A stretch of 64,000 bases of DNA from a virus (Duplodnaviria; Caudoviricetes). This document shows, piece after piece, positions 11,958-53,851 of the stretch. The number at the start of each line of letters is the position of its first letter. The first letter of the stretch is position 1. The stretch lies in the IMG/VR virus record IMGVR_UViG_3300020460_000012, one strand, 5' to 3'. The notes under the pieces were generated by a model. That model worked only from the letters and a program-made list of their open reading frames with translations. It was not told the DNA's origin and searched no databases. The translations under genes were made by a program, and so were the position numbers.

Positions 11958-12113
11958 CTATTTGTAAATAAACGGGTCACGTTTTTTTAATTCTTTCATT
12001 TTTTTTCTAAAAGCTAATTCTTCCTTAATTTTAGTATAAGGCCAAATTATTATTTGCCATATACTTTTTAGAACACTTATAATTGCATTCCAAATCTTTT
12101 TTAAATAAACCAT
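11958..12113 (-). CDS. 51-aa basic amphipathic protein ending KRDPFIYK (not in ORF track)
   Basis: MVYLKKIWNAIISVLKSIWQIIIWPYTKIKEELAFRKKMKELKKRDPFIYK; fills the gap exactly. Confidence 0.7.
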   Translation of the reverse strand: MVYLKKIWNAIISVLKSIWQIIIWPYTKIKEELAFRKKMKELKKRDPFIYK

Positions 12114-13081
12114 TTTTTTGCTCCTAATCTTATTTTTAAAGGAGAAGTTTCAGCATGACTTACAATACTGTGTAGAGTAAAAATCCTGCCATAATGCTCT
12201 ACTGCATCTCCAATGTCATTAATGTTATCGCCCCAAGGTGGTAAAGAAACTCCCCAGCCAAAGTCTATGGCTTGTTCTACAAGTTTCGAACCCGCTTTAT
12301 CTCTGTCAGGCACTACTATTACATCTTTATTTAATCTATTAATTAATAGTGCTTGTTGATCTTTGGCTTCGCTTCCTAATAGTGCAACGCCTTCGATATG
12401 GATAGCATCTATAGGACCTTCGCATACAATTACAAATATTTTTGCAGGGCGTTGATCATCTAAGTTAAACACATATCCTGGCTGTTGCTCTGAAAGATAT
12501 TTTACCTTTTTATTATCATTCACAGATCTTGCAGTCCAGCCCACAATGCGGTCTTCATAGTAAAAAGGTATAATTAGTCTATCTCTATATCCTAATGATG
12601 GAGACCAATAGTAGTTGTAATCTTCTAAGAACAATTTTCTTTGTTTCATATAGTTAACTACTTGTGCAAAATGCTCACTAGTGTTTGAACACTCTGCAAT
12701 GCTTACTGCATCTAATGGCAACGGCACAGTATTAAACTTAGGTACTTCTACAAGTTGCTGTTTTACTTGTATGCCTTCGTTCTCCTGCATTACAGTAAGT
12801 GCAAGTTTGTTAATTACATCATCTGGTGCATTTAACCATTGTAGTAACTTTCTCATTTTAACACTTAGATTGCGACCTTGTTGCCAGCTAGCTTTATAAC
12901 CACAGTTGAAACAATGGTAACTTACCCCATCAGCGTTTGATATTAAACCACCACGCTGTCTTGTGTCAGCTGTAGTCCCATTATGTTGACAACAAGGCGC
13001 ATTGAATGCGGTCCACCCGCTAGGCGTTTGTTTACGCTTAGGCGGCAGATATGTCAGAACTGTATCGTTGACTACACTCAT
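12101..13081 (-). CDS. gp61: DNA primase (zinc-binding plus TOPRIM), T4 gp61-like
   Basis: CC..H / YHCFNCG zinc motif; VCEGPIDA and VVPDRD TOPRIM motifs. Confidence 0.9.
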   Translation of the reverse strand: MSVVNDTVLTYLPPKRKQTPSGWTAFNAPCCQHNGTTADTRQRGGLISNADGVSYHCFNCGYKASWQQGRNLSVKMRKLLQWLNAPDDVINKLALTVMQENEGIQVKQQLVEVPKFNTVPLPLDAVSIAECSNTSEHFAQVVNYMKQRKLFLEDYNYYWSPSLGYRDRLIIPFYYEDRIVGWTARSVNDNKKVKYLSEQQPGYVFNLDDQRPAKIFVIVCEGPIDAIHIEGVALLGSEAKDQQALLINRLNKDVIVVPDRDKAGSKLVEQAIDFGWGVSLPPWGDNINDIGDAVEHYGRIFTLHSIVSHAETSPLKIRLGAKKWFI

Positions 13082-13087
13082 AATACT

Positions 13088-13116
13088 ATTATAGCGTAGT
13101 TACTCGCTTTTGTCAA
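13088..13116 (-). promoter_or_regulatory. sigma70 promoter, leaderless, for the primase
   Basis: TTGACA-17-TATAAT, 6 nt before the ATG. Confidence 0.8.
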
Positions 13117-13177
13117 GGCTTTTTATGATTATTTCTCTTTGTTTATCGGAGTATTTTGTCCAATTAGCTATCTGCTC

Positions 13178-13210
13178 AAGGGTGCGGCCGCATCCGCGAC
13201 ACACACCCTT
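13178..13210 (-). terminator. GC-rich hairpin after the DUF6580-like gene (terminator-like, weak U tract)
   Basis: AAGGGTGT...GTCGC-GGAT-GCGGC...GCACCCTT with G-U pairs on the - strand. Confidence 0.5.
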
Positions 13211-13217
13211 AATTAAG

Positions 13218-13721
13218 TTACACTGTTTTTTGCAAGGACTTTCCATACTTTTTTGTGATGTAGTATAAGCCATAAAATATTGCAGTATAAAAGATTGTAC
13301 CTAACAGTGTCATATGAAAGAAAGGTATAGCCGCTACGTAGCAAGCAAATAATCCTTCTAAGGTATAACCGTACCAACCTCCTGTCCACACTCCAAAGTT
13401 TGTAACAATAAAGAATGTAACGGGGGCTAATACACTATTAGTCATTAGGTTTTTACTGTAACTTGCGATAAAGCTACACAATGCTACTGAACCATATGTC
13501 CAAAATAGCCATTGATGTAATCCCCAATATAAGTCGCCTATAAACATTGCACCTAAAGTAATAGGAAGTGCCGCATACCATTTATTAACTAAAAATGGAA
13601 TAAAAATAGCCACTGCTAGTATAGGTGTAAAGTTTGGTGGGTGCGGAATAATTCGAGACATGCCAAGTATTGTGGCAAATCCGATTATCCATGCTACCAA
13701 CTCAATGTTGTGCCGACCCAT
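13218..13721 (-). CDS. DUF6580-like integral membrane protein (putative ECF S-component-like vitamin transporter)
   Basis: RIIPHPPNFTP signature; FFIVTNFG and YVAAIPFF motifs; about six TM segments. Confidence 0.75.
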   Translation of the reverse strand: MGRHNIELVAWIIGFATILGMSRIIPHPPNFTPILAVAIFIPFLVNKWYAALPITLGAMFIGDLYWGLHQWLFWTYGSVALCSFIASYSKNLMTNSVLAPVTFFIVTNFGVWTGGWYGYTLEGLFACYVAAIPFFHMTLLGTIFYTAIFYGLYYITKKYGKSLQKTV

Positions 13722-14056
13722 GTCTCTGTTCTTTCAAAATGTGGATTGATATCATTAAGCATATACACACTTAAATTATCTGTCAAAGAATAATTTACAG
13801 TTAGTGTTTGACTATACATATCTAACAGATGTTCGCTTGTTGCACTGTCAATTGCAACTGAAGCACTATAAGTGCTTGATAGCTTATCTGTCCATGGTTT
13901 AGTTGCGTAAAAGTAACCGTATTGTAATCCAGTTACTGTACCTTTTTCAGCAGTAATGCTGAACATCATATCATCTGTAAAAGATGACTTTGCTTCTTCG
14001 GCAGAAACCGAGACACAAAAAAAGACCGCAAAAAGCAGTCCAAGTAGTTTGTTCAT
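13694..14056 (-). CDS. Exported beta-strand-rich protein with terminal Trp (outer-membrane-protein-like)
   Basis: Signal peptide ending VSA; alternating aromatic beta-strand pattern; C-terminus TWVGTTLSW; GGAGG RBS. Confidence 0.6.
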   Translation of the reverse strand: MNKLLGLLFAVFFCVSVSAEEAKSSFTDDMMFSITAEKGTVTGLQYGYFYATKPWTDKLSSTYSASVAIDSATSEHLLDMYSQTLTVNYSLTDNLSVYMLNDINPHFERTETWVGTTLSW

Positions 14057-14080
14057 ATGTCCTCCTTTGTGAACAACACT

Positions 14081-14109
14081 AGTATATATTACTTAAAGTA
14101 ATTTGTCAA
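14081..14109 (-). promoter_or_regulatory. sigma70 promoter for the two-gene membrane module
   Basis: TTGACA-17-TATACT. Confidence 0.75.
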
Positions 14110-14121
14110 GAGTAATTTTGG

Positions 14122-14910
14122 CTAGTTTCTTACTAATATTTGGGTAATTTTATCTGCTGGATTTACTGTTGTTTTGAATCTTATGTAAGAAAATACGCCA
14201 TTAAAACTTACAGGACTAGGAGCAGTTTCTGTTCCGTTAAATGATAAAGTAGCAACTGTACCCCAATTTGTTGTTCCTGTAATCTGGTTATCCAAAGTTG
14301 CTTCTACAGTAACGTCTCCAATAAATGCATTTGTATATATAGCGGCTGTATGTAATGCTTCGTTACCGTTGACTGCTGGTTCCGCATTTACAGCACTTGA
14401 CACCCAGATACTTGAGTTAACTGCTGTCTCAGTTAGAGATGTTACAGAAGATGTTTTTAAAGGACCAGGAAATGTTTTTCCGTTAACAAATATTGTTCCA
14501 TTATTTTTAAAATTACTTTGATTGTAAGTTAAAACTTTATCTCCGTCTGTTTCAACAAGATATACAACATAGCTTAAGAATTGTTGTTTTAAATTTTTAA
14601 GATCATTTTCTGTAACTGTAACTTTAAATTTACCTCGTGAAATTGTACTACCGTCATCTTGTATTGTACAGTCTTTTTCTATTACCAACCTATCGCTCTC
14701 ATCATATGCCATAAATTTTATAGTGTAACCTGTTGCTACATTTACACCTTTCTGGTCTGCGTTTAATAATTTAAATTGTAAAGCATTGTCTATGCCTCTA
14801 TAAATTTCTATGTCTCTATTATACACTGGTCTATACTCCGTAATGAAACCTGCCAAATCTGCGACAAGTATGGTTGTGTTATCGACTAAATATCTTGGTA
14901 ATAACTGCAT
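14122..14910 (-). CDS. Putative virion structural protein, beta-rich (start revised to 14910)
   Basis: TATAAATA at 14915-14922 immediately before MQLLPRY; T/S/N/V-rich. Confidence 0.6.
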   Translation of the reverse strand: MQLLPRYLVDNTTILVADLAGFITEYRPVYNRDIEIYRGIDNALQFKLLNADQKGVNVATGYTIKFMAYDESDRLVIEKDCTIQDDGSTISRGKFKVTVTENDLKNLKQQFLSYVVYLVETDGDKVLTYNQSNFKNNGTIFVNGKTFPGPLKTSSVTSLTETAVNSSIWVSSAVNAEPAVNGNEALHTAAIYTNAFIGDVTVEATLDNQITGTTNWGTVATLSFNGTETAPSPVSFNGVFSYIRFKTTVNPADKITQILVRN

Positions 14911-14943
14911 AATGTATTTATAGGAAAAATGTGACAAACACTA

Positions 14944-52113: not shown

Positions 52114-52449
52114 ATGCGTCCTTTATGCAAATGTAAGCAACGGCCTGCGGCCATAAACTATTATAAAGATGGTAAACCCTACTATAGAAAGCTGTGCGAA
52201 AAATGTTTACGCAATGGTCTTAATCATGGAGTGCCTAAGTGGCAACAATATGGTTATGAAAAAAAAGAAGTTTGTGAAAAATGTAACTATAAAAGCAAAC
52301 ACTCAGAAGTATTTAATGTTTTCCACATAGACGGGGATTTAAATAATTGTAGACCTACAAATTTAAAAACAATTTGTGCTAACTGCCAGCGTATTGTACA
52401 GAAGCAAGGGGTTCGCTGGAAACAAGGTGACCTTCGACCTGACTTTTAA
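52114..52449 (+). CDS. HNH-type zinc-binding endonuclease-like protein
   Basis: CEKC...HIDGDLNN...NLKTICANC; TAAATA 4 nt upstream. Confidence 0.7.
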   Translation: MRPLCKCKQRPAAINYYKDGKPYYRKLCEKCLRNGLNHGVPKWQQYGYEKKEVCEKCNYKSKHSEVFNVFHIDGDLNNCRPTNLKTICANCQRIVQKQGVRWKQGDLRPDF

Positions 52450-53029
52450 GATCTTGTATAGTCCCATCATTATACAAAATTGCATCAAAATGGTTATTAG
52501 TATCAATCCATTTATATTCACTAGCATGTATATCATATGCAGACATTAAATCACTTCCTGTTTGGTTATCTAATATTGCTTGACCAAACCATTCAGGATC
52601 TGTACCACGTTTTACTTGCCAAATTTCTCCGCCAAGATCTCTAATAACATTTTGTTCATTTCGAAATCTCACATCAGGAATAACAAATTCTTTAGTAGGA
52701 TTGTTAATTATTTTTTGTTTTACCATGCTTACCCATATACCATCGTAAAAGCCATTACGCATACAATCAGTGCCAAACTCTTGTAAAACTAACCTAGGTG
52801 TAATTTCACGGCCTGTTTCCTGTGTCCAAAACTGGTCAACTTGTTCTCTCCATTGCCTAGATATATGACTATCACCTTCTAGCATATCCCTATCCCAACT
52901 GAATAGTTCAGCTACTGCATCTTTTAGTTTATCTGCAAATGATATTTTTTCAAAACCGTACTCGTCTACAAGATAGTCACTTACTGTACCTTTACCGGAA
53001 CCAATAAGTCCACAGATACCAATAATCAT
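52379..53029 (-). CDS. gp1: Deoxynucleoside monophosphate kinase, T4 gp1-like
   Basis: GLIGSGKGT, SFADKLK, RLVLQEFGT, IPDVRF and HASE motifs. Confidence 0.88.
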   Translation of the reverse strand: MIIGICGLIGSGKGTVSDYLVDEYGFEKISFADKLKDAVAELFSWDRDMLEGDSHISRQWREQVDQFWTQETGREITPRLVLQEFGTDCMRNGFYDGIWVSMVKQKIINNPTKEFVIPDVRFRNEQNVIRDLGGEIWQVKRGTDPEWFGQAILDNQTGSDLMSAYDIHASEYKWIDTNNHFDAILYNDGTIQDLKSQVEGHLVSSEPLASVQYAGS

Positions 53030-53092: not shown

Positions 53093-53851
53093 TTAGCCGA
53101 TTAAAAAGCCATAGCCTTGTCCGCCTGCTACTGCGGTGCTTACTTCTTGCTCTAACTTTTCCATTTCAGCTTGTGCTTCTGATTTAAGTGCATCACCGTT
53201 CAAAGTACTTCCGCCCCCAGGACCAGCTATAGTAGCAAATTTACTCCTTGCTTCTCCTAACATGTACTTACATGATGCTAAAGTGTAGTCTTTAATCCAT
53301 TGCTTTGCAAGATAGTCTGATAGTAATTGTGTGTCTGGTCTGTAGTTATATGCATAAAGCAATAGATCTTCTTCTGCACGTGGACGTTGTAGCAACGTAA
53401 GTTTCTTAGTAGTTGTATTCCATTTAAATTCAATAAAACTACCAAACATACGTCCTACTAGCTCTTGATGTTGTGCAAATAAATCATATGTTGCTAATCC
53501 GCCTAACTTAGAGCCTGATAGCAAATATGTATTTGTATAGGCCATGTTAAATGGTTCAAACAACGAGCCTCCGTCTGTACCTCCAGTCCTAGAACCTATT
53601 GACCTTCTAAATAGCTTTCTTATTTCAATTACTTCATCAGGTAGTATATATTCGTTTTGATCTACTACTGTAGTCAAAAACAAGTATGATTCTTCAACAC
53701 TATTATCTGATCTTTGTCTAAATTTACTTAAAGCTTTGCTAAGTGCGGTTTCGTAATGAACAGGGTCTAATTCTACATCAATCATGCCACCACCTAAGGA
53801 CGCATTTACGTAGTCATATACCTCTTGTTTCATTGTTGCTAGCTCAGACAT
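53093..53851 (-). CDS. gp13: Neck protein gp13-like
   Basis: LGGGMIDVELD, WIKDYTLA..K..LG and LNGD motifs. Confidence 0.85.
   Translation of the reverse strand: MSELATMKQEVYDYVNASLGGGMIDVELDPVHYETALSKALSKFRQRSDNSVEESYLFLTTVVDQNEYILPDEVIEIRKLFRRSIGSRTGGTDGGSLFEPFNMAYTNTYLLSGSKLGGLATYDLFAQHQELVGRMFGSFIEFKWNTTTKKLTLLQRPRAEEDLLLYAYNYRPDTQLLSDYLAKQWIKDYTLASCKYMLGEARSKFATIAGPGGGSTLNGDALKSEAQAEMEKLEQEVSTAVAGGQGYGFLIG

Follow-up and report, generated by a model that had tools for sequence, protein, structure and literature searches.

In the 64,000-nucleotide stretch of DNA analysed here (the window; IMG/VR virus record IMGVR_UViG_3300020460_000012), which comes from an uncultured T4-like giant phage of marine origin and has genes for a tail sheath, a terminase of the T4 type, a DnaB-type helicase and a primase, we describe a cassette whose first two genes pair a small exported beta protein (gene 1) with a membrane protein of the family DUF6580 (gene 2). 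We propose that the cassette is a phage-borne auxiliary unit for uptake of cobalamin (vitamin B12, a corrinoid), and put the probability of this whole picture at roughly 0.6. The proposal is carried by the family to which gene 2 belongs and its fold, the occurrence of that family in B12 regulons, the strict linkage of the two genes, and the exchange of gene 1 for a BtuB-like receptor between otherwise syntenic phages. B12 is scarce in the sea and limiting for many marine bacteria, most of which must import it. A first-pass annotation, made from the sequence alone, had read the locus as an envelope module for vitamin uptake, and that interpretation is supported by the evidence set out below; what is new here is the small and apparently phage-only half-barrel partner that takes BtuB's place.

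Gene 2 and the cobalamin context of the DUF6580 family

Gene 2 matches the DUF6580 model PF20221 with an E value of 1.3e-35 and 123.5 bits (cut-off 27) over model positions 8–157 of 162, and its AlphaFold2 model is a helical bundle of seven DSSP helices (pLDDT 90.5). The loop R-x-x-P-H-P-P-N-F-T-P is present, so that the PHPPNFTP signature and membrane helices noticed at first pass are both borne out. The protein keeps every invariant column of DUF6580 alignments of 15 and 46 sequences, namely R23, the PHPPNFTP loop (with H27 and N30), D63, G67, H69, N108, Y117 and C127–Y128, of which C127 is near-invariant. These residues map to three extracytoplasmic loops (L1, L3 and L5) and to the neighbouring ends of the predicted helices, a region that in the model would correspond to the ligand pocket of the S-components of energy-coupling factor (ECF) transporters.

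An exhaustive structural search with the gene 2 model points to the same group of proteins and agrees with the six-helix architecture of S-components. Of 48,161 PDB representatives, the 15 that score best are without exception ECF S-components or relatives of the CbiM/NikM type (Z 9.6–12.1 over 141–158 residues), the best matches being RibU (Z 12.1), FolT, BioY, ThiT, BtuM (10.9), CbiM and PanT, while unrelated folds reach Z 6.2 or lower. The S-component fold that had been suggested from the sequence is therefore recovered in the comparison proposed as a check on it. HMMER searches of PDB chains, using either the single gene 2 sequence or the DUF6580 profile, returned nothing at E values up to 10, BtuM entries included. 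We hold with good confidence that gene 2, taken by itself, is a B12 importer.

The genomic surroundings of DUF6580 in bacteria associate the family with B12. We gathered 80 bacterial loci, whose proteins are 33–46% identical to the phage protein. Immediate upstream neighbours (n = 76) include 19 TonB-dependent receptors, five DUF4430 proteins, two CobA/BtuR proteins and one each of PduO type, MetH-like and BtuF-like proteins; downstream (n = 74) there are five B12-binding domains, four PduO type proteins, four TonB-dependent receptors, four radical S-adenosylmethionine (SAM) proteins and two BtuF-like proteins. In 16 of 30 loci (11/15 receptor-linked loci and 5/15 others) Rfam recognises a cobalamin or adenosylcobalamin (AdoCbl)-II riboswitch upstream of DUF6580 and on its strand, as expected if bacterial homologues sit under cobalamin riboswitches. 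The riboswitch-controlled loci belong to SAR11, SAR116, Ignavibacteria, Omnitrophota and Patescibacteria. EcfT (PF02361) was found in none of five DUF6580-bearing bacterial genomes, and a clear BtuC in none of the same five. BtuM itself was discovered through the same kind of genomic context (PMC6072759). AdoCbl-II riboswitch-controlled DUF6580 operons were seen in two SAR11 loci (L072, L033) and in two loci of the Patescibacteria, or candidate phyla radiation (L013, L017).

DUF6580 is present in at least 101 IMG/VR contigs. Of 83 viral loci inspected, 33 have a TonB-dependent receptor next to DUF6580, 10 have gene 1, 16 have a lipoprotein of about 60 residues and 24 have no recognisable partner. 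When the receptors beside phage DUF6580 genes are scored against receptor models, the BtuB model TIGR01779 is the best match by a wide margin. An AdoCbl-II riboswitch lies directly 5' of a DUF6580–BtuB pair in three phage loci (L142:5825-5903, L147:5803-5883 and L150:3034-3120); these operons have a virion structural gene on one side and a gene for a gp32-type single-stranded DNA-binding protein on the other and are thus true phage DNA, so that phage copies of DUF6580 are tied directly to B12. No riboswitch was found in the gene-1-type loci or in phage loci with the receptor upstream, which have instead a conserved sigma70-type promoter, and expression of the cassette should therefore not respond to B12.

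Giant phages of the BtuB plus DUF6580 type also encode proteins of 620–770 residues with B12-binding and radical SAM domains (class B; L202:1195-3219, L203:40-1896), which are likely consumers of the imported vitamin. A class II (B12-dependent) ribonucleotide reductase was considered in related phages and set aside: the reading frames of 777–811 residues score 150–173 bits against a cut-off of 400, and probably encode class I enzymes.

Two further observations concern phage DUF6580 loci. In L155 and L159–L173 (e.g. L159:5433-5615:+), DUF6580 is followed by an overlapping gene for the lipoprotein of about 60 residues, which has an L(A/V)GC lipobox, ends in ...FTITQTFKWS and is not matched by any Pfam model; in this other phage lineage, DUF6580 thus has a third type of small exported partner. 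A glutamine riboswitch (RF01739, 54.6 bits) lies at L134:3697-3743, upstream of a BtuB–DUF6580 pair in a phage contig, and may hint at a cyanobacterial host.

Gene 1, its linkage to gene 2 and the exchange with BtuB

DUF6580 lies immediately downstream of gene 1 on the same strand in 49 of 49 gene 1 loci, so the co-occurrence of the pair in other genomes, on which the first-pass reading depended, is complete in this set. The two genes overlap by 28 nucleotides in 44 of the 49 loci and by 37 or 52 in the other five. Gene 2 starts with an ATG embedded in the gene 1 codons for the invariant ...ETW..., and the overlap is consequently constrained by both proteins.

In a FastTree phylogeny of 169 DUF6580 proteins with local support values, all gene-1-linked copies fall into one all-viral clade (support 96), where they are intermingled with BtuB-linked copies in sister groups that have support values of 99 and 98. 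The exchange can be seen directly in syntenic phages whose flanking proteins are 74–94% identical and which differ in this slot: L126 and L135 carry gene 1, and L129 and L130 carry a BtuB-like receptor. Gene 1 thus replaces the BtuB-like receptor in place in sister phages. The reading of gene 1 as a truncated TonB-dependent receptor was rejected: a profile compared with 16 phage and bacterial receptors gave E values of 0.13 or higher and local alignments of five gene 1 proteins with six phage receptors gave z scores of 2.0 or lower. Neither a Plug domain nor a 22-strand barrel was found in gene 1, which has no Pfam match; the region upstream in L126 holds no receptor remnant, and no Plug domain was found elsewhere in the gene-1-type records, which are incomplete.

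The gene 1 product has a Sec-type signal peptide with cleavage at MNKLLGLLFAVFFCVSVSA/EE and no lipobox, and the mature protein is acidic, free of cysteine, and composed of 28% Ser/Thr and 14% aromatic residues. AlphaFold2 predicts six long beta strands in an open sheet (mean pLDDT 82), with hydrophobic and polar residues alternating in four of the six. The window protein ends in ...W-V-G-T-T-L-S-W. The ending typical of the family is G-x-x-Y-x-W, which persists in its most distant members; G115 and Y118 are shared by 90% or more of the sequences, tryptophan is the last residue of 31 of 36 close members, and 9 of 10 distant members end in W or F. Such an ending fits the beta-signal of substrates of the beta-barrel assembly machinery (BAM), with a terminal aromatic residue, a hydrophobic or aromatic residue at −3 and glycine at −6. 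The signal peptide, amphipathic strands and terminal tryptophan described at first pass all hold up on this evidence, as does the accompanying caution that about 100 mature residues are few for a monomeric barrel: the monomer model is open and has six strands, where a closed barrel has at least eight, and the nearest viral folds are modelled as dimers.

The best PDB alignments of gene 1 are with segments of outer-membrane barrels (TamA Z 8.3, Omp33 8.0, FyuA 7.9, PapC 7.8, KdgM 7.5). Among viral structures in BFVD, the best matches are cyanophage proteins described as outer-membrane protein (OMP)-like or DUF680 (probability 0.98–1.0, TM 0.37–0.49 for named members), and a language-model search likewise places gene 1 near the cyanophage OMP-like family (feature score 0.96). 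Membership of that family, PF24653, is not supported by sequence: none of 36 gene 1 family members matches its model at E values up to 10, the hhalign probability is 22%, and the likeness is in fold and size alone. The PF24653 model does recover its own members in cyanophages syn9 and P-SSM2.

The gene 1 family is small. No match was obtained in Pfam, PHROG or NCBIfam; a full HMMER profile search of 1.84 billion representative proteins gave 11 clusters at 50% identity, all of 68–133 residues, and listed no other family, and the family comprises 36 clusters at 90% identity. A pattern scan of 185,579 species genomes found no cellular member, and the 50,697 deposited phage genomes hold no relative of gene 1 or of gene 2. 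Judged by these searches the family is phage-only. Its predicted location in the outer membrane and its putative role as a stand-in for BtuB follow from the exchange, the beta-signal-like ending and the resemblance in fold, and gene 1 is the weakest link in the B12-uptake reading.

Proposed mechanism and alternative explanations

We propose that host RNA polymerase would read the cassette from the sigma70-type promoter that it carries, and that expression, with no B12 riboswitch present, would not depend on B12. Gene 2 would insert in the inner membrane as a solitary carrier of the S-component type, operating with neither an ECF module nor BtuCD, and would bind B12 at the periplasmic face and move it inward, in the manner of BtuM. 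Gene 1, made in fixed ratio with gene 2 by way of the 28-nucleotide overlap and exported by Sec, would most probably be inserted in the outer membrane by BAM through its C-terminal G-x-x-Y-x-W signal, where several six-strand half-barrels may join into one barrel. This assembly, in place of the BtuB-type receptor of the sister phages and perhaps in contact with gene 2, would deliver corrinoid to the inner-membrane carrier or concentrate it for that carrier. Gene 3, a four-cysteine DUF1289 protein, may be an optional cytoplasmic accessory, and the imported B12 would feed B12-dependent enzymes of the phage or its host during infection.

Several points weigh against this proposal. Neither the 64-kb window nor the gene-1-type records G001–G003, which are 13–67% complete, yielded a B12-dependent enzyme, and no B12-binding domain was detected in those records. 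The exchange demonstrates that gene 1 can occupy the position, not that its function is equivalent. The structural matches of gene 1 are middling (Z of 8.3 or lower) and those to soluble half-barrels lie near (DUF3836 7.0, LolA 6.6), while no sequence similarity to TonB-dependent receptors or to PF24653 is detectable. A 12-strand dimer is probably too narrow for B12 (about 1.4 kDa), so that gene 1 would have to form a higher oligomer or serve in docking. For gene 2, DUF6580 loci in SAR86 have neither a riboswitch nor an adjacent receptor, and the substrate may therefore vary within the family; we found no paper naming DUF6580 or PF20221, and no experimental evidence for any protein of the family. 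In its strongest form, the proposal would have gene 1 half-barrels form a TonB-independent minimal corrinoid pore or docking site in place of the 22-strand, energy-dependent BtuB, so that gene 1 and DUF6580 together, in about 290 codons, would suffice for complete uptake across two membranes; this we regard as speculative and rather doubtful.

Two alternatives concern the role of gene 1. It might be a periplasmic or membrane-peripheral protein that captures corrinoid or hands it on, in a role like that of DUF4430 or BtuF, with gene 2 importing B12 and the BtuB of the host performing the outer-membrane step. Bacterial DUF6580 does pair with DUF4430 (5/76) or BtuF-like binding proteins besides receptors, the small lipoprotein partner in another phage lineage suggests binders rather than channels, and the soluble half-barrels DUF3836, Rv2717c, nitrobindin and LolA3 align with gene 1 at Z 6.1–7.0, against 7.5–8.3 for outer-membrane barrels. 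We nevertheless consider a capture protein unlikely, since the conserved C-terminal G-x-x-Y-x-W/F is typical of BAM substrates, the modelled open sheet leaves one hydrophobic face uncovered, the best viral structural matches are OMP-like cyanophage proteins, and it is BtuB itself that gene 1 replaces in syntenic phages. The same replacement bears on a role in receptor masking or superinfection exclusion, as had also been raised at first pass, in which gene 1 would be an outer-membrane protein that blocks a host receptor such as BtuB or another TonB-dependent receptor that this phage or its competitors use, and gene 2 would compensate for the block or be merely linked to it. BtuB is a classic phage receptor, and analogous blocks are those of FhuA by T5 Llp and of LamB by lambda Lom. 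Phage-encoded outer-membrane proteins with such a role are known, including the Lom–LamB case (bioRxiv 10.64898/2026.10.24.761521), and both the early-type host promoter of the cassette and the restriction of the gene 1 family to phages would suit it. Linkage to a transporter gene in all 49 loci, with translational coupling through a 28-nucleotide overlap in conserved codons, would however be unexpected for a free-standing exclusion factor, and sister phages that hold a complete BtuB-like receptor in this slot are adding a receptor rather than hiding one; we judge exclusion to be distinctly improbable.

It might also be argued that the B12 context of bacterial DUF6580 does not carry over to the phage clade, and that the cassette imports some other micronutrient or exports something. 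S-component folds bind many vitamins, no riboswitch was found in the window or in gene-1-type loci, and the SAR86 proteins that lack a B12 context lie in the same half of the tree. In this all-viral clade DUF6580 nevertheless has a BtuB-like receptor as its partner, riboswitches control the genes of the nearest bacterial groups (SAR11 and SAR116), other phage DUF6580 operons retain the AdoCbl-II riboswitch, and gene 2 retains all invariant residues of the pocket, so that we give another substrate very little credence. The cobalamin uptake unit is, for these reasons, the explanation that we prefer.

Cassette layout, gene 3 and relation to known systems

The cassette is bounded on one side by a gene for a virion structural protein (14937..14122) and on the other by the primase gene (13081..12101), and its composition is unremarkable, with a GC content of 0.36–0.39 compared to 0.30–0.37 nearby. 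Its features are listed in Table 1. The separate sigma70 promoter recorded at first pass is confirmed, and nearly all related loci have a TTGAC −35 element and a TATA-type −10 upstream of gene 1, whichever gene precedes it (18/31 by a strict pattern, and most of the others by eye). A search of the window for riboswitches gave none at E values up to 1. The description of a self-contained two-gene module stands insofar as genes 1 and 2 overlap, and needs amendment in that a third gene overlaps the 3' end of gene 2.

Table 1. Features of the cassette and of the adjoining primase-gene promoter, with positions in the window.
Feature	Position	Strand	Basis
Sigma70-type promoter of the cassette, TTGACA-17-TATACT	14109..14081	-	11/12 consensus matches
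Shine-Dalgarno AAGGAGG of gene 1	about 14067..14061	-	read from sequence; several relatives have AAAGGAG(G/A)
Gene 1, 120-residue exported six-strand beta protein, candidate outer-membrane partner	14056..13694	-	open reading frame, AlphaFold2, linkage
Gene 2, 167-residue DUF6580 membrane protein, candidate solitary inner-membrane cobalamin importer	13721..13218	-	PF20221
Overlap of genes 1 and 2, 28 nucleotides	13721..13694	-	read from sequence
Gene 3, 57-residue DUF1289 four-cysteine protein, overlapping the 3' end of gene 2	13273..13100	-	PF06945
RNA hairpin, 16-bp stem, beginning 6 nucleotides past the gene 2 stop, within gene 3	13212..13177	-	folding
Primase-gene promoter, perfect TTGACA-17-TATAAT, inside the 3' end of the DUF1289 open reading frame	13116..13088	-	promoter scan

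Gene 3 matches the DUF1289 model PF06945 at an E value of 6e-15 and 55.3 bits (cut-off 27) over model positions 1–45 of 47, and its cysteines C14, C18, C25 and C28 are conserved in seven relatives. DUF1289 lies downstream of DUF6580 in 8 of 49 gene 1 loci, the window included, with homologues at the same position in L089, L093, L105, L106, L107, L114 and L117 (E values of about 1e-17 to 1e-18). The papers found to mention DUF1289 do not address its function. The hairpin that had been taken to close the module exists, with a centroid energy of −25.6 kcal/mol and a z score of −3.4 against shuffled sequences, and lies inside gene 3 rather than after the last gene; no U-tract follows its stem and a terminator scan made no call there, so we do not regard it as an intrinsic terminator. 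It is formed by the codons for (K/N)GV and RT(L/I) that flank the CxGC motif, and it is the same in all DUF1289-bearing loci. In L089 a compensatory pair, AAG...CTT to AAT...ATT, alters both amino acids, which together with this conservation suggests that the RNA is under selection as well as the protein.

In sister phages L126–L130 the cassette lies between homologues of the window genes 53093..53851 and 52379..53029, which in the window are adjacent to one another, the cassette lying 39 kb away beside the primase gene. This difference in position indicates that the cassette moves as a self-promoted unit. In L001, L102, L118 and L119 the cassette is preceded by tRNA genes.

These results add phage evidence, including phage operons with a B12 riboswitch, for DUF6580 as a widespread B12 importer, and they suggest that giant marine phages support the supply of B12 by several means, namely a full BtuB-like receptor, a tiny lipoprotein or a half-barrel of about 100 residues. 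If gene 1 does substitute for BtuB, no smaller outer-membrane component of a vitamin uptake route would be known, and it would be a simple object for the study of oligomeric barrel formation and of TonB-free passage of large solutes across the outer membrane. The cassette, with its promoter, three overlapping genes and hairpin, is compact enough for direct testing in E. coli.

Among characterised proteins, gene 2 most resembles BtuM of Thiobacillus denitrificans (PDB 6FFV, 8C7P, 8OVV), which is likewise a small solitary membrane protein with an S-component fold and aligns with the gene 2 model with Z 10.9, a root-mean-square deviation of 3.6 over 149 residues and a TM score of 0.60. Both BtuM and DUF6580 are found beside btuB-type receptors, DUF6580 like BtuM in genomes that seem to have neither an ECF module nor BtuCD, and gene 2 shares with the BtuM family a linkage to btuB and the B12 regulon, seen as riboswitch–receptor–DUF6580 operons in bacteria and as BtuB-like partners in phages. 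The hallmark of BtuM is an invariant cobalt-ligating Cys80 in loop 3 (PMC6072759). Loop 3 of DUF6580, in contrast, reads G-L-H-x-x with an invariant His69 and no cysteine, the sole conserved cysteine being C127 at the start of helix 6, and HMMER detects no sequence similarity between the two families. DUF6580 may therefore be said to work like BtuM without being a BtuM. It is also far more widely distributed, with 4,687 clusters over many phyla and phages compared to 131 proteobacterial homologues of BtuM (PMC6072759).

As a whole, the cassette resembles the operons that join BtuB to an inner-membrane importer, both those of bacteria and the phage operons of a BtuB-like receptor with DUF6580, in that a gene for an outer-membrane component (here a putative one) is followed by, and coupled to, DUF6580. 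The likeness to the phage operons extends to the same DUF6580 clade and the same locus in syntenic phages. It departs from them in having a gene 1 of 120 residues for a receptor of 580, with no plug, no 22-strand barrel and no riboswitch. Gene 1 itself is most like the cyanophage OMP-like family (PF24653 Phage_OMP, IPR056410, DUF680), which shares its size of about 120 residues, signal peptide, six strands, terminal aromatic residue and occurrence in aquatic phages. Such six-strand phage proteins have been described as incomplete barrels, predicted to form a dimeric barrel of 12 strands, and are sometimes found beside phosphate-uptake genes (bioRxiv 10.64898/2026.10.24.761521). The motifs differ, however, with YGYFYATKP and RTETW in gene 1 compared to GPYV...KY.F in PF24653, and strict coupling to DUF6580 is specific to gene 1. 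Gene 3, finally, is like the DUF1289 proteins with four cysteines, of the E. coli YdhL type, in matching over its full length and retaining all four, and differs from them in being encoded by a phage, in overlapping a transporter gene and in carrying a conserved RNA hairpin across its CxGC motif.

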